Positions 3,929 to 28,092 of a stretch of DNA of 64,000 bases are shown here, one piece after another. Position 1 is the first letter of the stretch, and the number at the start of each line of letters is the position of its first letter. The notes beneath the pieces are model-generated. The model saw only the letters and a list, made by a program, of their open reading frames with translations. It was not told where the DNA came from and searched no databases. This DNA comes from Acidimicrobiia bacterium (GTDB lineage: Bacteria; Actinomycetota; Acidimicrobiia; Spongiisociales; Spongiisociaceae), in contig VXMP01000022.1 of the NCBI GenBank assembly GCA_009841075.1, positions 10,782-74,781 of the forward strand, given 5' to 3'. The position numbers and the translations under genes are program-made.

Positions 3929-6082
3929 TTAAGAAGGTTCCTGGTCCAAAACCGAGTCGGCCAGGATCATGGAGATGTCTCGAACGGCCACCGCATCCTC
4001 CTGGCCAAGTTCCCGCACCCCGTCGTCCAGCATGATGTAGCAGAAGGGGCAGGCAACCGCCACCTCGTCGGCACCGGTTTCCACCGCCTCCTCGGCCCGA
4101 TCGATGCTTACCTTCTTGCCCACCCGTTCTTCCATCCACATCTGGGCACCTCCGGCACCGCAGCAGAACGAACGGGTACCGGAACGGCCCATTTCGACCA
4201 CGTTGATCCCTCCTATAGACGCCACCACCCCTCTGGGTGCCATATACACGCCGTTATACCGTCCCAGGTAGCAGGAATCGTGGTAGGTGACGGTCTTGGA
4301 CTGCCCGTTCTTGGGCTGGAGCAAACCCATCTCCACCAGCTCCGACAGCAGCTGGCTGTGGTGGATCACCTCGTAGTTCCCTCCGAATTGAGGGTATTCG
4401 TTCCGCAAGGTGTTGAAGCAGTGAGGACACTGGGTGATGACCTTCTTAACCCCGCGATCCTCCAGGGTTTCGATGTTTTGGATAGCCAGCATCTGGAAGA
4501 CGAACTCGTTGCCCGACCGCCGGGCCGGATCGCCGGTACACAGCTCGGCCGGTCCGAGAATGGCGAAGCTGACACCCGCTTCGTTAAGCAGGCGGGCGGT
4601 CGCCACCGTAACCTTCTGGTTGCGGTCATCGAAAGAACCGGCGCATCCCACCCAGTACAGATATTCGGCCGACTCGACATCCTGTCCGAGGATCGGGACA
4701 TCGAAATCCAGCTTGTCGGTCCAGCTGCTCCGTTCCGCCTGGGCCATGCCGTAGGGGTTGGAAGAGTTCTCCATCGACAGAAAGGCCTTACCCAGCTCGG
4801 AGGGGAAATCGGCTTCCATCAAGGCCAGATAGCGGCGCATGTCCAGGATCTTGTCCAGGATTTCGATATCGACCGGGCAGATCTCGTCGCAGGCCTTGCA
4901 GGAGGTGCAGGCCCACAGCTCTTCGGGCGTTATCCGCTCGAACACGTTCTCTGCCGACACGGTGATGGCCTGGTCGACCGAGACCGGAGGGGTGACGGCG
5001 GGGTCGGCTGTCCGAGCGGCCACCTCGCCGAGCTTGAGGACTATTTCGCGTGGATCAAGCGGCTTGCCGGTGGCGTTGGCCGGACAAACCGAGGTGCATC
5101 TCCCGCAGACGGTGCAGGCGTCGGTGTCGAGGAGTTGTTTCCAGGTGAACTCCCCCACCAGGGATGCGCCCACCGTTTCGATGTCTTCTACCTCCATCAG
5201 GTTGGGCATTTCCCGCATCGCCCCGGGCGGACGCTCTCTCGGACCGAGGAACATATTGACCGGCGAGGTCACCATATGACGAAGTTTGGTGGTGGGGAGA
5301 ACAACCAGAAACGCCAGGAAGGAAACCACGTGCAAAACCCAGATAATCTGGTGGATTCCGGCCGCCGACGAGTCGGGAACCAGCTGCGAGAGCGGATAGC
5401 CCACAAACGACCAAACCTCGTGGGCGGGACGGTTCTCCACCGCTATCCGAGCCGCTTCGGTCGCCAGACCGGTGATCCCGATCAAGGCGAGGGTGACCAG
5501 AATCCAAAAGTCTTCCGGACGGGTCTTGGTGCGCAACCGTTCCGGTGCCTGACCGTATCGCCGGACAAAAGCCCAGGCCAGACCGCCCAGAAAGACCAGC
5601 GCCGCCGCGTCGAGCACGAAAGAGTATCCCCGGTAGAAGTCGTCCCGCAGGAACTTGTAATCGGCCGGGAGCAGATGGTCGATCTCCAGGGTCACCGTCC
5701 CCAGAAACAGGATCAGGAATCCGTAATACACCATGGAATGCATCAGGCCCGCACCACGGTCACGCATGAGGGTTTGCATACGCAGGCCGGCCCCCATAGC
5801 CATTACCCGTTCCTTCCAGAGTCCGGTGCGCCGGTCGGGTTGTCCCCGCTGCCAGTTTTTGGCTCGCAGCGAAAACAGGTAGAAGGTGAGGAACAGGAAA
5901 CCCGCCACCGATATATAGAACATGGCCACCAGCGGGGTGGGTATGTTCCCGAAGACCTCCCGGGTGATCGGACTATCGGTATGGCCGGGGAACTGACCGA
6001 CAAACCAGCTCGCCAGGGTTCCGGCGGCCACCAACACCCCGAGAACTATTAAAACCTCGGCGGCTGAGAATCTACGGCGCAC
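3929..6082 (-). CDS. membrane-anchored (Fe-S)-binding oxidoreductase, HdrD/GlpC-like with an N-terminal polytopic domain
   Basis: Hydrophobic N-terminal third. Two 4Fe-4S motifs (CTVCGRCTSVCP, CTSCKACDEICP). Cys-rich CCG-type repeats (CPHCFN, CCGAGG). Resembles actinobacterial Rv0338c-type proteins. Confidence 0.85.
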   Translation of the reverse strand: MRRRFSAAEVLIVLGVLVAAGTLASWFVGQFPGHTDSPITREVFGNIPTPLVAMFYISVAGFLFLTFYLFSLRAKNWQRGQPDRRTGLWKERVMAMGAGLRMQTLMRDRGAGLMHSMVYYGFLILFLGTVTLEIDHLLPADYKFLRDDFYRGYSFVLDAAALVFLGGLAWAFVRRYGQAPERLRTKTRPEDFWILVTLALIGITGLATEAARIAVENRPAHEVWSFVGYPLSQLVPDSSAAGIHQIIWVLHVVSFLAFLVVLPTTKLRHMVTSPVNMFLGPRERPPGAMREMPNLMEVEDIETVGASLVGEFTWKQLLDTDACTVCGRCTSVCPANATGKPLDPREIVLKLGEVAARTADPAVTPPVSVDQAITVSAENVFERITPEELWACTSCKACDEICPVDIEILDKILDMRRYLALMEADFPSELGKAFLSMENSSNPYGMAQAERSSWTDKLDFDVPILGQDVESAEYLYWVGCAGSFDDRNQKVTVATARLLNEAGVSFAILGPAELCTGDPARRSGNEFVFQMLAIQNIETLEDRGVKKVITQCPHCFNTLRNEYPQFGGNYEVIHHSQLLSELVEMGLLQPKNGQSKTVTYHDSCYLGRYNGVYMAPRGVVASIGGINVVEMGRSGTRSFCCGAGGAQMWMEERVGKKVSIDRAEEAVETGADEVAVACPFCYIMLDDGVRELGQEDAVAVRDISMILADSVLDQEPS

Positions 6083-6101
6083 CCTCTGAGTTTAGGCGGC
6101 C

Positions 6102-6920
6102 TTACGGTTGGGCCGCGATCTTCCCCAGTTCCTTGGATCGTTCGGTGGCGGCCTCTACGGCTTGGCGAACCAGCTCCCAAAAGCCATCTCGTCCCATAAC
6201 CTCCAGGGCCGCCGCCGTGGTGCCGCCGGGGGAGGCCACCCGCTCCCGAAGTACGGTCGGGCTATCCGGCGAGGTTTCCATCATGGTCCCCGCCCCTTTA
6301 ATGGTCCGTGCCACCAGCCGCAACGCCACCTCGGGTTCCAGCCCTTGCTTCACCCCCTCGGCGATCATGGCCTCCGCCAACGCATAGGCATAGGCGGGGC
6401 CGCTGCCCGACACCGCCGTAACCGCATCCATCAAGGACTCCTCAACCTCTTCCACCAATCCAACCGCCTCCAGAACCGCCCTGGCCAAAGCCATATGTCC
6501 ACTCTCGGCGGTGCTTCCGGGTGCGCAGACAGTAACGCCCTCACCTACCAGGGCGGGAGTGTTGGGCATGGCCCGAATAATCGGCACCTCCCCCAGAGCC
6601 CGCTCGTAAACGCTGATCGGCACCCCGGCCACCAAAGCCACCAGCACCTGGTCAGCGGTCATAACCTCGGACAGCTGGGCCAGGGCCGGATGGATGTCCT
6701 GGGGTTTGACGGCCAAAACCACGATTTCCTGGCCTTCGATCCCCTCGGCGGGGGTTAGAACCGTCCGGCAACCGGAGGTTTCGGCCAGCTCCTCGGCTCT
6801 GGGTGGATGGGATTCGATCAGGGTGAGATCCGCTTGCTCCCAACCGGCTTCCAGAAGACCGGAGAACAGGGCACCACCCATAGCGCCCACCCCGACGATG
6901 GCTATAGAGGACCTGTCCAT
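6102..6920 (-). CDS. proC: pyrroline-5-carboxylate reductase
   Basis: Rossmann start IAIVGVGAMGGAL and the conserved C-terminal SPGGTTAAALEVM. Confidence 0.9.
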   Translation of the reverse strand: MDRSSIAIVGVGAMGGALFSGLLEAGWEQADLTLIESHPPRAEELAETSGCRTVLTPAEGIEGQEIVVLAVKPQDIHPALAQLSEVMTADQVLVALVAGVPISVYERALGEVPIIRAMPNTPALVGEGVTVCAPGSTAESGHMALARAVLEAVGLVEEVEESLMDAVTAVSGSGPAYAYALAEAMIAEGVKQGLEPEVALRLVARTIKGAGTMMETSPDSPTVLRERVASPGGTTAAALEVMGRDGFWELVRQAVEAATERSKELGKIAAQP

Positions 6921-10468: not shown

Positions 10469-11857
10469 ATGAACCTGTTAGCACCACTGGGAAGTCTTCG
10501 AGCGAACACCAGAATCTGGTTGGCCGGGCTGTTGACGGCGGGCTTGGTTCTGTTCCGACCGTCTATTGCGTCTGCGGCGGAGATGGCCGAAGGTGAAGTG
10601 GCCTTTATTCTGAACACCTTCTCGTTCATGATCTGGGGGGCACTGGTCATGTGGATGTGCGCCGGGTTCACCATGCTCGAATCGGGTGCGGTGCGAACCA
10701 AGAACTCCTCAATGATCTGCCTGAAGAACATCGGGATCTACTCAATATCCTGTCTGGCCTTCTACGTAATCGGCTACAACCTGATGTATGTGGACGTGGG
10801 CGGGGTCATCGGTTCCTTCCAACTGTTCTACTCCTCCTCGGCGGCCGAGATCGACCTGGTGGGCGGTAACGCCGCGGCGGTCGATTCGGTGGTTTCGAAC
10901 GGCTACAGCGTCCTCTCCGACTGGTTTTTCCAGATGGTGTTCGTGGCGACTACCTCCTCCATCGTCTCCGGGGCCATCGCCGAGCGGGCCAAACTGTTCC
11001 CCTTCTTCGGATTCACCCTGGTACTGGCCGCCTTCATCTACCCGGTGGTGGGTGCCTGGACCTGGGGTGGTGGATGGCTGGCCGAGCAGGGCTTTTCCGA
11101 CTTCGCCGGCTCCACCATCGTCCACAGCGTGGGAGGCTGGGCCGCCCTGGCCGGGGTGATCGTCATCGGCCCTCGACTCGGCAAGTTCCGTAAGGACGGG
11201 ACGGTCAAACCCACTCCCCCTTCCAACGTGGTGGCGGTAACGCTGGGGATCTTCATCCTCTGGCTGGGCTGGTTCGGGTTCAACGGCGGTTCCCAGCTGG
11301 CCTTGGGATCGGCCTTGGACGCGGTGGCCATGAGCACCGTCTTGGTCAACACCAACCTGGCCGCCTGCGCCGGTGTCCTGGCCGCCCTGGTCATCTCCAG
11401 GCCGCTGCTCGGACGGATCGACCTGTTCGCCGGACTCAACGGTGCCATCGCCGGACTGGTTTCGATCACCGCCGGCCCGACCATGGCCGACCATTACTGG
11501 GCCATCCTCATCGGGGCCATCGGCGGCATTATCTGCACCCTGGGTATCAAAGGACTGGAAAAGATCAAGGTCGACGACGTGGTGGGGGCGATCCCGGCCC
11601 ACCTCATGTGCGGCATCTGGGGAACCTTGGCCGCCGCGCTCCAGCCCGACGTGAACCTCGGAACCCAGATGATCGGCGTGCTGGCCGTGGGTGCCTTCGT
11701 GTTCGTTATCTCCTTTCTGGTCTGGACGATCCTAGACCGAACCACCGGGCTGCGGGTTTCTCCACAGGCCGAACACCTGGGCCAGGACGTGGCCGAGCTG
11801 GGAATGGAGTCCTACCCCGAGTTCGTCCTCATGCCCGACACCTTCGACGACGAATAA
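10469..11857 (+). CDS. amt: ammonium transporter
   Basis: Amt signatures GFTMLESGAVRTKN, AGSTIVHSVGGWAALAG and LGWFGFNGGS. About 11 TM segments. Confidence 0.95.
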   Translation: MNLLAPLGSLRANTRIWLAGLLTAGLVLFRPSIASAAEMAEGEVAFILNTFSFMIWGALVMWMCAGFTMLESGAVRTKNSSMICLKNIGIYSISCLAFYVIGYNLMYVDVGGVIGSFQLFYSSSAAEIDLVGGNAAAVDSVVSNGYSVLSDWFFQMVFVATTSSIVSGAIAERAKLFPFFGFTLVLAAFIYPVVGAWTWGGGWLAEQGFSDFAGSTIVHSVGGWAALAGVIVIGPRLGKFRKDGTVKPTPPSNVVAVTLGIFILWLGWFGFNGGSQLALGSALDAVAMSTVLVNTNLAACAGVLAALVISRPLLGRIDLFAGLNGAIAGLVSITAGPTMADHYWAILIGAIGGIICTLGIKGLEKIKVDDVVGAIPAHLMCGIWGTLAAALQPDVNLGTQMIGVLAVGAFVFVISFLVWTILDRTTGLRVSPQAEHLGQDVAELGMESYPEFVLMPDTFDDE

Positions 11858-23545: not shown

Positions 23546-24445
23546 ATGGTTCCTCGGTTCGCATTCCTGGTTGTCATCGCCATCATTTTGTTGACCGCCT
23601 GCTTCAGCAGCGCGACTGACCCCTTACCCACCACCAGCCGCCCCAGACCTACCATCACAACCACCACCCACCCGGAACCCACCACGACCACTACCGACCG
23701 GACTACTACTACTACCACCCGACCGACCACAACCACCGTGGCGGCCGTTACCACCGTTGGAACCGTCGCGACCTCAACCACCTCCACCGTTGCCACCACC
23801 CTGCCCCCGACTACCACGGTTCCGGCCAATCCCGGTGATGCTGTCTCCTGTGTGGACTTTGACACCTGGGAGGCGGCTCAGACCTGGTTCGACACCTACT
23901 CACCCCATTACGGTGACATTGCCTACCTGGACACCAACGAAAACGGAGTGGCCTGCGAGAAGCTACTACCCGAAGGGGTAACTGCCGCAAACGTCGCCAC
24001 CACCACAACCACCAGGTTGACAACTACCACCACCGCCCAACCGGCCACAACCACCACGACCCGGCCGGCTACTACTACCACCCGACGAACCACTACCACC
24101 ACACGTGCTCCGGCCCGGTCTCCGTTCACATACAACGAAATGGAATTCATCAACGAGAGCTTGGTTTTCCTGGGCCTGGGCGGAGGTGGGTTCTACCGTG
24201 ACGGCATAGATACCACCGGAGACGGCCGCGCAGACACAGCCTGGGACGATCCTGCCGCGAGAATATACATCACCGACGCCCGCGAGGCCATTCGCGAAAC
24301 ACGGACCATATGTGAATCCATCAAAACCGGAGCGGCCGAGATTGGATGGACCGCAGAGGAAGCTTTGCGTTACGGACTGGAAACCGGCCGCCTAACAGAG
24401 ATCGAATACCTGGTCGGTTCTCTAGCAGTTGCCTACCTCTGTTGA
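23546..24445 (+). CDS. lipoprotein with Excalibur calcium-binding domain flanked by Thr/Pro-rich linkers
   Basis: Signal peptide with lipobox LLTAC. CVDFDTWEAAQTWF...LDTNENGVACE matches the Excalibur DxDxDGxxCE-type loop. Two long poly-Thr tracts. Confidence 0.75.
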   Translation: MVPRFAFLVVIAIILLTACFSSATDPLPTTSRPRPTITTTTHPEPTTTTTDRTTTTTTRPTTTTVAAVTTVGTVATSTTSTVATTLPPTTTVPANPGDAVSCVDFDTWEAAQTWFDTYSPHYGDIAYLDTNENGVACEKLLPEGVTAANVATTTTTRLTTTTTAQPATTTTTRPATTTTRRTTTTTRAPARSPFTYNEMEFINESLVFLGLGGGGFYRDGIDTTGDGRADTAWDDPAARIYITDAREAIRETRTICESIKTGAAEIGWTAEEALRYGLETGRLTEIEYLVGSLAVAYLC

Positions 24446-24687: not shown

Positions 24688-25926
24688 TCAAGCTGCTTTG
24701 GCTGCCCCGGCCACCTTTCTGATGTCCGTCTTGCCGGTGGCGCGTAGGGGCATCCAGCTAACCACCTTCTTGAATCCCTCGTTGACCAAGAAGAAGGTCG
24801 TAAGAGAATAGAGTGCCACGAAGAACGCCACTATCAAGAGGCGGGCCGTGTTGGTTTCCTGTACCGCCCGGTCGGCCAGGTAACCCAAACCGGCAGAGAA
24901 ACCCAGGAACTCGGCGACGATCGCCAGCGACCAACTACCTCCTATGGCGAGCAGTAGGGCGGTGCGCAGTTCCGGAATCGACCCCGGCACTATCACCTTG
25001 TAATAGGTGTGCAGCCGGGAGGCACCCAGGGTACGGGCGCTTTCGATGTAGCGATCGGGCACGTTGGCTACCGCATTCATAGTGGCCACCACCAGGATGG
25101 TCCACACTCCGAAGGCGATATAGATGGTGATCCCCAAGAAGTTGGCACCCAGTACCAGCTGCAACCAGGGTGCCGCCACCAGCAGGGGGATCATCCGCAG
25201 GAAGTTCATGGGTGCCCACGCCGTCTTGCGCACCGCCGGCCAGTAGGGAAGCGCCAGACCGGTCAGGAGACCCAGCGTCATGCCGACCACTATGCCGGAC
25301 AACAGCCTGAGCAGGGTCACAACGGAGTGGAAGGCGATGGCGAGGAAAGCCCCCGTCCAGGTGGGTTCTCCACGGAAGATGGGAAGGGGTGCCAGCCTTT
25401 CGAAATTGAAGGCAACGAAGCCGAAGTCGGCACCACTGACCGTCCAGAACCTGGACATTCCGAAGAGGGTGTCACCGAACACATAATCCCATCCTGGTAC
25501 CAGAGGATGCTCAAGAGTTCCGTGGGGCACTACATAAGAGGCCACCTGCCACGCCACCATCAACCCCACCCAGGCGACGAAAAAGAGCGGGCTGCGGCGC
25601 ATGCCTACCCACAGCATCGACGGCACCCTCCCTATTCCCCGTCCCGCCCTGAGCAGACCGTTCTTGACCCGGGTGGTACGGAAAGCCACCGGCCAGACCC
25701 AGAACAATACCGACCCCAAAACAATGTAAGACCAGGTGACGTGGGTCACCCCCTCGCGATGGGTCCAGGTAACCAAAGGAAGGCTTTCGGGCAACCGGAT
25801 GAGCAACCACAGGATGAGTACGGCCCAGATCGGCCAGGCGATCCAAAACAGGCTGCGGAGGAGAACCGGTCGATTCCAACCATGGTCGCCCCCGCTTCGG
25901 CCTTCAGTTGACATAGTCCACCCCAC
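24688..25926 (-). CDS. ABC transporter permease (NitT/TauT-like) with an N-terminal extension of about 150 aa
   Basis: Binding-protein-dependent transport (BPD) permease signature ESARTLGASRLHTYYKVIVPGSIPEL. Extra N-terminal TM segments. Confidence 0.8.
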   Translation of the reverse strand: MGWTMSTEGRSGGDHGWNRPVLLRSLFWIAWPIWAVLILWLLIRLPESLPLVTWTHREGVTHVTWSYIVLGSVLFWVWPVAFRTTRVKNGLLRAGRGIGRVPSMLWVGMRRSPLFFVAWVGLMVAWQVASYVVPHGTLEHPLVPGWDYVFGDTLFGMSRFWTVSGADFGFVAFNFERLAPLPIFRGEPTWTGAFLAIAFHSVVTLLRLLSGIVVGMTLGLLTGLALPYWPAVRKTAWAPMNFLRMIPLLVAAPWLQLVLGANFLGITIYIAFGVWTILVVATMNAVANVPDRYIESARTLGASRLHTYYKVIVPGSIPELRTALLLAIGGSWSLAIVAEFLGFSAGLGYLADRAVQETNTARLLIVAFFVALYSLTTFFLVNEGFKKVVSWMPLRATGKTDIRKVAGAAKAA

Positions 25927-26877
25927 CTACAAACCCAGTTGGCGGCCGCCCTCGGACCATCTGGTGAAAGAGCGTATAACCACTACCAGTAGCACATCGA
26001 CTACCACAGCCAACACGCCGAAGAACAGAATCAGACCAACCACCGCAGTCGCCCCCTCCGAGCGGCCAACCACGTAGCTGAACATGCGAATCAGGAATCC
26101 TCCCCCCATCTGCGGTCCCAGCACCTCCACCAGCGTCCCCAAACCCCAGGCACCTCCCAAGGCGATCCGAAAACCTCCCGCGATCTCCGGAACCGTTCCC
26201 CGCAGGTACACCCACCGGAATATGGTACGGCGGTCGCCCCCCAGGGTGAGGGCTGATTCGATGATCCCCGCCGGTATGTTCTCGGCCGCCCGGCGGGTGA
26301 AAAAATACATAAGAAGGGTGGTGTAGAAGGCAACCACCCCGATGGTGGTCAAGAGGGGATAGTCGATCCCGAACCAGATCACGAAAAAGGGGGCCACAAT
26401 AAAGATGGGGGTAGTACCGAAGAAACCGGCTACCGGCGTGACCAAATCGGCAATCCACGGTATAAGCAGGGTGCTCAGCCCGACTCCCAGGCCGATCACC
26501 GTGCCCAAACCCACTGCGATCAGGATATTGCGGGTGGTGTGCAACAGATGGAGGATGTACCCGAAACAGTAATCGGGCAGACTGGAAAGCCTCCCCCTTC
26601 GGAACTCCAATCCGGCCGCCAGATCAGGACAGGCATGCACAAACCTATCCCTCATCGGCTCGCTGAAAATCAGGTTGTCCAGGAAGTGGTTGACCGCCTC
26701 GATCGGCGAAGGAATAAGAGAGGAAAGGGGCGAAAAGGGGGCGGCCCACAGCTGCCAGACCAGAAGAAACAGCACCATCCCCAAAACCAGATGGAAGAGG
26801 TGGGAAACCCGATGCCGCCGCCTGTTACGGCGCGCCGCCGCCCTAACTTCCAGAACATCGGTGCTGGTGGTGGTCAC
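25927..26877 (-). CDS. ABC transporter permease (NitT/TauT-like)
   Basis: ESALTLGGDRRTIFRWVYLRGTVPEI EAA-loop region. GTG start. Abuts the next permease with no gap. Confidence 0.8.
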   Translation of the reverse strand: MTTTSTDVLEVRAAARRNRRRHRVSHLFHLVLGMVLFLLVWQLWAAPFSPLSSLIPSPIEAVNHFLDNLIFSEPMRDRFVHACPDLAAGLEFRRGRLSSLPDYCFGYILHLLHTTRNILIAVGLGTVIGLGVGLSTLLIPWIADLVTPVAGFFGTTPIFIVAPFFVIWFGIDYPLLTTIGVVAFYTTLLMYFFTRRAAENIPAGIIESALTLGGDRRTIFRWVYLRGTVPEIAGGFRIALGGAWGLGTLVEVLGPQMGGGFLIRMFSYVVGRSEGATAVVGLILFFGVLAVVVDVLLVVVIRSFTRWSEGGRQLGL

Positions 26878-26995
26878 GGTACTTCTAAGCCGTCCTCCTG
26901 ATCTTTGGGGTGGAACTGGTCTCGGACGCTAGGCCCGGAGGGTGTTTTAATCGACCCTAGAGCCGACAACCCTTACCAAAATACCCGGATTGTTT

Positions 26996-27214
26996 TCAGT
27001 GACCGTGGTGCTCGTGGGTATCGCACTCATGCATATCATGAACATGGCCAAACTCATCACCATGATGCTCATGCGTGTCGCACTCGTGCGCGTCATGCTC
27101 GTGCTCATCGGCATGGTGCTCATGGCCATCGCACTCGTGCATATCATGAACGTGGCCTTCTTCGTGGCCATGGTGTTCGTGAGTGTCGCACTCGTGCGTG
27201 TCGTGCATTTTCAT
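26996..27214 (-). CDS. small His/Cys/Asp/Glu-rich repeat protein (putative metal-binding)
   Basis: 72 aa with 25 His, 4 Cys and 23 Asp/Glu, arranged as 4x HECD(T/G)HEHH. AAGGAGG lies 5 nt upstream of the ATG. Confidence 0.7.
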   Translation of the reverse strand: MKMHDTHECDTHEHHGHEEGHVHDMHECDGHEHHADEHEHDAHECDTHEHHGDEFGHVHDMHECDTHEHHGH

Positions 27215-27324
27215 CCGGGCCTCCTTTCGGTGCCAACGGACCTCTAACCAAGATCGGTCTCTTAATGCGGTGCTTGATCAAAGGTTGGGTTCCAAGTTTA
27301 ACAGACACCGGTCCGGTTGACCTT

Positions 27325-28092
27325 TCAGCAAACCTGGTTGACGAGAAAAACCCCTCCTGCGAAGTCCGCCGCCACGATCATGTCGCCCAGCGGGGTGGTG
27401 AACGGCCCGTTCATGACGGCGCCGCCCAGTTCTTCCACCTTGGAAGCGGTTTCTTTTACGTCCGCCGTAGCGAAATAGGTGCACCAAGAAGGCGGGACGT
27501 TTTCGGGTGGTGTCATGACACCGGCGACTATCTCTCCGGCGGCTTTGAGCAAGGTATATGACATCGGACCCATGTCGGTCGGTTCGGAATCCAAACCGAA
27601 TACGGTCGCCAAGAACTGAGTCGCCGACCCGACATCGGGCACATATAGTTCGCTCCAGCTCAAAGACCCAGGTTCTTTGATGAGCTGCGCACCGCGGTGG
27701 TCTCCCGCCTGCCATATTCCGAACGCAGCACCCTGGTTGTCCAAAATATAGGCCATCCGCCCGGCGTTCATCACCTCTTCCGGTTCCATCAGACCGGTTC
27801 CCCCACACTCGATCGCCCTTTTATAGACCTCGTCTACCGAATCGGCCGCCAGGTAGGTGTTCCAGACCGACCGAAGGCCCATGTCCAAAATCTCCTGGGG
27901 AGCCGGTCCCAGACCCGCCACTGTGTGGCCGTCTTTTTGGGCCATCGAGTAGGTGAAGCCCTGCCGGGTGGGCACTTCCTCCCAGGTCCAACCGAACAGC
28001 CCTCCATAAAAGGCTTGGGCACCCGCTATATCTGCGGCGCTCAGGTCAACCCAGCAGGGCTCCCCTTGGGTATATCCGTCTCGGTGCGGCAT
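27325..28092 (-). CDS. VOC (glyoxalase/bleomycin-resistance) family protein, two-domain
   Basis: GEPCWVDLSAADIAGAQAFYGGLFGW and a second repeat GSLSWSELYVPDVGSATQFLATVFG. Confidence 0.8.
   Translation of the reverse strand: MPHRDGYTQGEPCWVDLSAADIAGAQAFYGGLFGWTWEEVPTRQGFTYSMAQKDGHTVAGLGPAPQEILDMGLRSVWNTYLAADSVDEVYKRAIECGGTGLMEPEEVMNAGRMAYILDNQGAAFGIWQAGDHRGAQLIKEPGSLSWSELYVPDVGSATQFLATVFGLDSEPTDMGPMSYTLLKAAGEIVAGVMTPPENVPPSWCTYFATADVKETASKVEELGGAVMNGPFTTPLGDMIVAADFAGGVFLVNQVC

Follow-up and report, generated by a model that had tools for sequence, protein, structure and literature searches.

HECD-repeat proteins, an unannotated family of small His-rich proteins and candidate zinc buffers for CDF exporters

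A 64,000-nucleotide stretch of contig VXMP01000022.1, from an Acidimicrobiia bacterium of the Spongiisociaceae (assembly GCA_009841075.1, positions 10,782 to 74,781; hereafter the window, meaning the whole stretch analysed), carries on its minus strand at 26996..27214, stop codon included, an open reading frame (ORF) for a 72-residue protein, MKMHDTHECDTHEHHGHEEGHVHDMHECDGHEHHADEHEHDAHECDTHEHHGDEFGHVHDMHECDTHEHHGH, made of four HECD(T/G)HEHH units. This ORF is a real conserved gene, one member of an unnamed small-protein family under protein-level selection; the family is new and unannotated, and lies within a known functional kind, the small His-rich metal-binding proteins. We propose with moderate confidence that its members are small cytoplasmic Zn(II) buffers that work with ZitB-type cation diffusion facilitator (CDF) exporters and are probably disordered when metal-free. 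Conserved sequence and genomic context suggest that these proteins bind metal, that the metal is zinc, that they pass it to the CDF and that zinc excess induces them.

CDF antiporters draw their Zn(II) from a tightly buffered cytosol. To our knowledge, no cytosolic metallochaperone or dedicated buffer has been established for bacterial CDF zinc exporters, and none was described in the literature we searched, including a 2024 metallostasis review. The HECD family offers a concrete and testable candidate, being tiny and simple to synthesise, built on a strict motif, naturally variable from 2 to 10 units, linked to CDF genes and fused to them in natural examples.

A conserved gene family built from HECDxHEHH units

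With 25 His, 4 Cys and 23 acidic residues (13 Glu and 10 Asp) among its 72, the window protein matches exactly the composition, and the four-unit structure, read from the DNA in the initial annotation; His codons account for 35% of the ORF. A search of protein databases returned 36 small homologs of 39-103 aa, all made of HECD-type units and typically of the form HVHDxHECDxHEHHGDEPGHVHDxHECDxHEHH. We then scanned GTDB contigs (one genome per species) with the back-translated pattern CAYGARTGYGAYNNNCAYGARCAYCAY, which matched at least 120 stretches. Among the matches listed, 106 unique loci with stand-alone genes remained once duplicates and nine unrelated loci had been removed, and the counts below refer to these 106 listed loci. 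Of the nine, four were Firmicutes loci with genes for COG0523-type proteins and five were chance matches, out of frame, in GC-rich genomes of Actinomycetota and Acidobacteriota (L028, L045, L067, L085 and L097); the latter, like single-motif matches in metagenomes, were dropped as out-of-context ORFs. We count as family members small (under ~180 aa) soluble proteins with at least two HECDxHEHH units, among them the window protein. The units are joined by (G)DEPGHVHDx or AxEHxHDx spacers.

Unit number varies widely, with 2 units in 18 loci, 3 in 8, 4 in 63, 6 in 6, 8 in 8, 9 in 1 and 10 in 2, and units are always gained or lost in frame. Conservation of the frame had been proposed as a check on the gene, and the frame is indeed kept in more than 100 genomes, with no frame-breaking indels of units. 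The window's 19/17/19-residue unit spacing is common to 23 other listed loci, and across these 24 orthologs the His, Glu and Cys residues of the motif are all invariant (24/24), while their codons alternate synonymously between CAC and CAT, GAG and GAA, and TGC and TGT. In unit 1, H, E, C, H, E, H and H are invariant in 24/24 and the Asp after Cys is kept in 22/24. Differences at codon positions 1, 2 and 3 number 1504, 1930 and 7170, respectively, and synonymous codon differences outnumber non-synonymous ones by 5296 to 2646.

Such third-position-dominated substitution excludes both a non-coding repeat and the hydrophobic ORF that mirrors the gene on the plus strand (26990..27247, 85 aa, rich in Val, Met and Leu and antisense to the His-rich gene), since in the latter the first position would vary. 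The preference of the initial annotation for the minus-strand frame is thereby borne out. The mirror ORF stays open because the sense strand, dominated by His, Asp and Glu, lacks the Leu and Ser codons complementary to stops; by its substitution pattern it is not under selection. Translation signals are conserved as well: Shine-Dalgarno-like GGAGG or AAGGAG lies upstream of most homologs, and hairpin terminators follow many of the small genes in the Acidimicrobiia-type loci inspected. The AAGGAGG reported 5 nt before the window ATG is present, and the closest relatives among the matches listed, the Acidimicrobiia loci L102 and L043 (81% nucleotide identity), share the window's layout from this site to the start codon, GAAAGGAG-N-CCCGG-ATG. 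The elements of the window gene are as follows.

27170..27196, minus strand: unit 1, HECDTHEHH, residues 7-15
27113..27139, minus strand: unit 2, HECDGHEHH, residues 26-34
27062..27088, minus strand: unit 3, HECDTHEHH, residues 43-51
27005..27031, minus strand: unit 4, HECDTHEHH, residues 62-70
27220..27226, minus strand: Shine-Dalgarno sequence AAGGAGG, 5-nt spacer to the ATG at 27214-27212

Four copies of the motif in the window compare with a mean of 0.0 over 50 shuffles. The two halves of the protein agree at 27/31 residues and at 79.6% of nucleotides. Of the 19 nucleotide differences between the halves, 13 fall at codon position 3, which argues for an old internal duplication under selection and not a recent DNA repeat. 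No hydrophobic stretch was found in the 72-aa protein, so that, by inspection, a signal peptide or transmembrane helix is excluded, as first noted.

The family had initially been judged impossible to place, and database searches agree: Pfam (E<=0.01) and NCBIfam returned 0 families for the 72-aa protein, and the sole match in a PDB sequence search was compositional (E=0.1, an annelid haemoglobin linker). The only database name carried by family members is "hypothetical protein", and we found neither HECD motif strings nor a description of the family in the literature. A collection of 15 billion proteins does not contain the exact sequence of the window protein, and 1.84 billion representatives searched with a profile yielded only 33 small proteins and no new architectures; the CDF fusions described below came to light in the DNA scan. 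Two long members of 90% clusters, P0059 (an unrelated protein without a family match) and P0075 (an M20 peptidase), are clustering artefacts. So few entries in protein collections, against more than 100 species-level genomes by DNA scan, indicate that gene callers largely miss the family, which illustrates how a widespread gene can stay largely out of annotation.

Linkage and fusion to ZitB-type CDF exporters

Genomic context was read mostly from 8-kb blocks, and a gene less than 1.5 kb from a block edge was treated as uninformative. In 70 of the 106 loci the small gene has one or more zinc-homeostasis genes within 3 kb, a further 19 being uninformative. The commonest partner is a CDF gene, present within 3 kb in 62 loci; among 63 CDF genes within 500 bp, 31 follow the small gene on the same strand, 30 are convergent with it and 2 precede it. 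ABC-3/AztB-like permeases are found in 14 loci, related ATP-binding cassette (ABC) ATPases in 13, Fur-family regulators in 8 (directly upstream of the CDF gene in L077) and ZnuA/AztC-like binding proteins in 7. Urease, hydrogenase, Nik/Cbi, RcnA and copper genes were not found as recurrent neighbours.

The neighbouring CDFs possess Cation_efflux and ZT_dimer domains and score best to ZitB (268-274 bits), with lower scores to the Co/Ni exporter DmeF (112-115 bits). An HxxxD/HxxxD quartet is typical of Zn-transporting CDFs, and the CDF of L012 has HxxxD in both transmembrane helices (TM) 2 and 5. The neighbouring importers likewise score best to zinc systems, namely AztC and AztB, with ZnuA and ABC-3 as their Pfam families. 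Every neighbouring CDF has His/Asp repeats in its N-terminal tail, which contains 15-47 His. These tails reach ~200 aa and consist of (G)HDHD-type repeats, for example in the CDFs at L012 5824-6903(+), L040 5636-7153(+) and L073 5534-6931(-).

In five loci (L027, L039, L055, L060 and L127), the CDF itself carries one to three fused HECD units at its extreme N-terminus, and the same fusion occurs in the metagenome contigs L133, L136 and L146, which share one identical sequence. Because the motif lies inside the CDF in only L027, L039 and L127 among CDF-linked loci, the search pattern does not account for the association of small gene and exporter. Fusion to importer components was never observed. 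In L027, a ZnuA/AztC-like zinc-binding protein (5193-6545(-)) contains a ~130-residue (EGHDED)n loop.

The window protein, having no hydrophobic segment and no Pfam match, is not itself a CDF, a six-TM protein with Cation_efflux and ZT_dimer domains. Nor does its gene adjoin a ZitB-like CDF or another zinc-homeostasis gene, an adjacency that is typical of the family and not universal.

A candidate Fur-type operator in Dehalococcoidia

A palindrome, GA[TG]A[CT]N3[AG]T[AC]TC, recurs upstream of the small genes and is interpretable as a Fur-type 7-1-7 box, GATACT-N-AGTATC. There are 44 copies in 1.0 Mb. Small, ZnuA-like or CDF genes start within 350 nt downstream of 33 of them (small genes 26, ZnuA-like 6, CDF 3), and none of the 44 falls inside an annotated partner gene. 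In the 200-nt stretches before small genes its density is 1.11 per kb against 0.044 per kb overall, a 25-fold enrichment. Examples are listed here.

L026, 6362-6403: palindrome
L015, 4408-4449: palindrome
L018, 5503-5515: palindrome
L051, 3891-3903: palindrome
L063, 6225-6310: palindrome
L011, 4693-4721: palindrome

Often the palindrome takes the form of two boxes 29 nt apart. In eight Dehalococcoidia loci (L015 4579-5043(+), L018 4854-5423(-) and six others) the small gene is divergent from a gene that by eye resembles the VOC superfamily (PhnB-like), and the two share the box-containing intergenic region.

This Fur-type box is present upstream of the small gene in ~17 Dehalococcoidia loci, where a Zur-like regulator probably uses it as its operator. 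Its placement suggests that, in Dehalococcoidia, the importer, the exporter and the small gene are all under one Fur-family, Zur-like protein. A precedent exists in Streptomyces coelicolor, where a single Zur represses znuA and activates zitB (PMC5472717, PMC11077047).

Proposed function and alternative readings

Tandem HECDxHEHH units flanked by HxHD would bind several divalent ions, with His imidazoles, Asp/Glu carboxylates and a single Cys thiolate from each unit as ligands; Zn(II) is the most likely metal. The metal-free protein is predicted to be disordered. In the cell, it would buffer cytosolic zinc and probably also pass the metal to the His/Asp-rich N-terminal tail of the CDF, so that the small protein would be a free-standing version of the module that some CDFs carry at their N-terminus. 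The range of 2-10 units fits selection on capacity. The window copy would act in trans, since its 64 kb hold no CDF. A cytoplasmic metal buffer or metallochaperone had been predicted from composition in the initial annotation, and purifying selection, linkage to zinc genes and the CDF fusions lend support to that prediction. If metal binding is confirmed, the repeat could serve as a compact genetically encoded metal-binding tag.

Several points weigh against a zinc buffer coupled to export. The CDF gene is convergent, and not co-transcribed, in the 30 loci noted above, and 17 loci, the window and 16 others, are true orphans. No CDF, ZnuA, ZnuB or Fur homolog was found anywhere in the 64-kb window, and the best match to the Fur-type box GATACTNAGTATC in the 260 nt upstream of its gene has 5 mismatches. 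ZitB/CzcD-type CDFs also carry Co(II) and Cd(II), which leaves the metal unfixed. An AF2 model built from a 24-sequence alignment has a predicted local distance difference test (pLDDT) score of 50.7 and no secondary structure, and provides neither site geometry nor stoichiometry. Finally, the same box stands before importer genes, and is equally compatible with expression under zinc starvation.

This last point underlies the strongest alternative, which we regard as rather unlikely: a Zur-repressed reservoir or scavenger, induced by zinc starvation, that would have the same multi-site zinc binding, take zinc imported by AztABC/ZnuABC-like systems and supply it to client proteins, in the manner of COG0523-type chaperones and other Zur-regulon proteins. 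The box upstream of the small genes is the one found 54-92 nt before ZnuA-like genes, and in L011 and L108 the locus also contains a ZnuA-like gene with a box immediately before it. Moreover, the window's closest listed relatives, L102 and L043, have the order znuA-znuB->small on one strand, and Zur classically represses when zinc-loaded (PMC6103462). We rank starvation induction below a buffer for export because exporters outnumber importers as partners (a CDF in 62 loci, an importer permease in 14), because the small gene stands directly before the CDF gene on the same strand in 31 loci, and because the HECD module is fused to exporters and never to importer components. In L018, the box precedes such a small gene-CDF pair.

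A different cognate metal, with the protein acting in storage or as a chaperone for Ni(II) or Co(II) (Hpn-like), Cd(II) or Cu, appears improbable. His-dominated ligands with a single Cys suit Ni, Co and Cu as well as Zn, and the neighbouring CDFs do score, more weakly, to DmeF. Their best match is nonetheless ZitB, the L012 CDF has the HxxxD/HxxxD quartet, the importers resemble zinc systems, and genes of Ni, Co or Cu systems do not recur among the neighbours. Rfam scans also revealed no NiCo riboswitch or other relevant element in window positions 22-32 kb (at an E-value threshold) or in 18 related loci (at gathering thresholds).

We give very little weight to a cis-acting leader ORF, in which translation of a His-dense or metal-binding nascent peptide would control the downstream transporter. 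The ORF is short, with His as 35% of its codons, and lies directly upstream of transporters in the window and in the 31 same-strand CDF loci; in L104, a hairpin is also seen between the small gene and the CDF gene. Against a leader stand the 30 convergent CDF genes and the 17 orphans, the terminator hairpin that many copies have of their own, and the window as the only place where permeases are linked. Positions of Cys, Glu and Asp vary no more than those of His, unit numbers of 2-10 suit capacity and not attenuation, and the HECD module forms a domain of mature CDFs. The remaining idea, a non-functional repeat or chance ORF with the mirror ORF perhaps as the real product, draws on the open mirror frame, the frequent omission of the ORF by gene callers, the missing exact sequence and the only 33 representative clusters, and is effectively refuted by solely in-frame unit changes in the 106 loci and by third-position changes around invariant H, E and C (first-position, Val/Met changes in the mirror frame), with conserved Shine-Dalgarno sites and the use of the motif as a protein domain in CDFs adding to the case.

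Returning to the zinc buffer for CDF export, a bolder version can be put forward tentatively, and by analogy: HECD proteins, as soluble counterparts of the transporter's own N-terminal module, might be dedicated zinc chaperones that dock on the His/Asp-rich CDF tail and feed the antiporter, much as CopZ serves CopA. The pair might have passed horizontally between symbionts of sponges and corals in two phyla, as a niche adaptation to host-controlled zinc.

The window gene and its neighbours

The window copy is a four-unit orphan, and its local context adds nothing to functional inference. It lies between two spacers.

27215..27324, minus strand: upstream intergenic region, 110 nt, from the stop of the glyoxalase/KbpA-like gene to the ATG
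26878..26995, minus strand: downstream spacer, 118 nt, up to the first ABC permease gene (25927..26877)

Upstream of the gene we found no inverted repeat of at least 6 nt and no convincing promoter, the sole promoter-like match overlapping the start codon. No terminator-like site was found in the 118-nt downstream spacer, so transcription could read through into the permeases. Conserved synteny with these permeases had been suggested as a check, and it did not hold: no listed relative has them or the KbpA-like gene nearby, and the linkage of small gene and permease is seen only in the window.

The permeases are two adjacent NitT/TauT/SsuC-like BPD_transp_1 genes of 316 and 412 aa (24688-26877 (-)). 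The first gene ends directly at the start of the second, which has a ~190-aa N-terminal extension, and no ATPase or binding-protein gene adjoins the pair. On the upstream side, 27325-28092 (-) encodes a two-domain glyoxalase/VOC protein (KbpA-like), for which no orthology to the Dehalococcoidia PhnB-like VOC genes was detectable. Further downstream, a plus-strand ORF of 299 aa (23546-24445) has long Thr/Pro-rich tracts with TTTTT runs around a short Cys-containing segment; it resembles a secreted or cell-surface low-complexity protein, and its sole family match is a sub-threshold one in Pfam.

Elsewhere in the family, eight long-contig contexts are heterogeneous. In L012, L019, L035, L084, L088, L103, L104 and L121 (Acidimicrobiia and Tepidiformaceae), a gene pair recurs within 3 kb; by eye, one product resembles a response regulator that carries a PP2C-type phosphatase domain, and the other an anti-sigma antagonist-like protein with a STAS domain.

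Distribution and habitat

The repeat was at first taken for a feature to be sought across Actinomycetota. Among the listed loci, the carriers are instead overwhelmingly metagenome-assembled genomes (MAGs) of Dehalococcoidia and other Chloroflexota, with a minority in Acidimicrobiia (nine loci: L012, L043, L059, L102, L103, L104, L116, L128 and L027, the last from Candidatus Spongiisociaceae). Isolate names suggest that many of the MAGs (SB066x, IRC, COS, APA, RHO and Plut) are sponge or coral bins. In a scan of a metagenome collection of 241 million records, multi-unit matches fell into two groups only, one consisting of MKWU01, LXNI01 and LXNJ01 and the other of four JGI data sets. The first three accessions are cited for Aplysina, Petrosia and Sarcotragus sponge metagenomes (PMC5099237, PMC5649159). 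That the family appears confined to Dehalococcoidia and Acidimicrobiia associated with sponges and corals suggests a metal physiology specific to the holobiont.

We considered an origin on mobile elements and found 0 matches among IMG/VR viral contigs and 0 among plasmids, though some copies lie among transposases. On the long ENA contigs L003-L008, two-unit small genes sit amid DDE transposases, IS21-type genes and further genes of mobile elements, and the 270-1000 nt before them lack annotation, which suggests that some copies move with insertion sequences. The window ammonium transporter gene (10469-11857 (+)) shows ~71% nucleotide identity over 1.2 kb to Dehalococcoidia genes located ~1.5 kb or less from the small gene in L092, L098, L033 and L096. 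This likeness is unusually high across phyla and may reflect horizontal transfer among co-resident symbionts.

Comparison with known systems

Hpn and Hpn-2 of Helicobacter pylori are small cytosolic His-rich Ni-storage proteins. Like the HECD protein, they have ~60-70 aa, are cytoplasmic, and combine ~35-45% His with few Cys and many acidic residues; both kinds presumably act as metal sinks with many sites and little structure. There is no detectable sequence relationship, as searches from the HECD protein returned only HECD-type proteins. The HECD family differs in its strict HECDxHEHH repeat with one Cys per unit, in a Zn-CDF/Znu/Fur context instead of a Ni, urease or hydrogenase one, and in its taxa, sponge-associated Dehalococcoidia and Acidimicrobiia. 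Of the initial analogy to Hpn, HypB and UreE, the likeness to a His-rich metal protein thus stands, while the implied nickel gives way to a context that indicates Zn(II), or possibly Co or Cd.

Like the proposed zinc buffers of the HECD family, the SmtA/BmtA metallothioneins are small, cytoplasmic and zinc-buffering, lie beside zinc-homeostasis genes and are expected to be metal-inducible. SmtA is dominated by Cys (9 Cys, 2 His) and holds a Zn4 cluster in a zinc-finger-like fold, whereas the HECD protein has 25 His to 4 Cys, a repeat number that varies across its family and no predicted fold, and the Pfam bacterial metallothionein model did not match it.

A closely similar motif is found in ORFs of other bacteria for known or presumed metal-trafficking proteins. 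Firmicutes ORFs of the COG0523/CobW type carry tandem HEC[DG]CHEHHH in a His-rich insert (L010 5384-5578, with a CobW_C Pfam match, L020 7358-7864, L074 5746-5811 and L165 84-374), and in L160 and L172 the same string stands at the N-terminus of large membrane ORFs that, by sequence reading only, resemble P-type ATPases. The COG0523 class (CobW, ZigA, ZagA and YeiR) is tied to zinc allocation. Its Firmicutes motif has two Cys per unit against one in HECD, and Pfam revealed no P-loop GTPase, CxCC motif or CobW_C domain in the window protein. The HEC..HEHH pattern thus appears to recur in known or presumed metal-trafficking ORFs, possibly by convergence.

Functionally, the HECD module recalls the N-termini of CzcD and ZitB, the His-loop of ZnT/MTP transporters and the expanded His-rich loop of the RcnA exporter (PMC11247825), and it is itself found fused to a ZitB-like tail. 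Its distinctions are a separate gene with its own Shine-Dalgarno site and a Cys-containing repeat in place of the (G)HDHD type.

Copper export offers a comparison in design. CopZ/Atx1 and the N-terminal domains of CopA-type P1B ATPases are soluble and exporter-fused forms of one module. The HECD protein and its CDF repeat this arrangement, a soluble module that is also an N-terminal domain of the adjacent exporter, which suggests hand-off. CopZ has a ferredoxin-like CxxC fold and delivers Cu(I) to a P-type ATPase, whereas disordered His repeats would deliver what is presumably Zn(II) to a CDF antiporter. With soluble and transporter-fused forms of a single module, the HECD family thus parallels CopZ and CopA in logic, not in fold.

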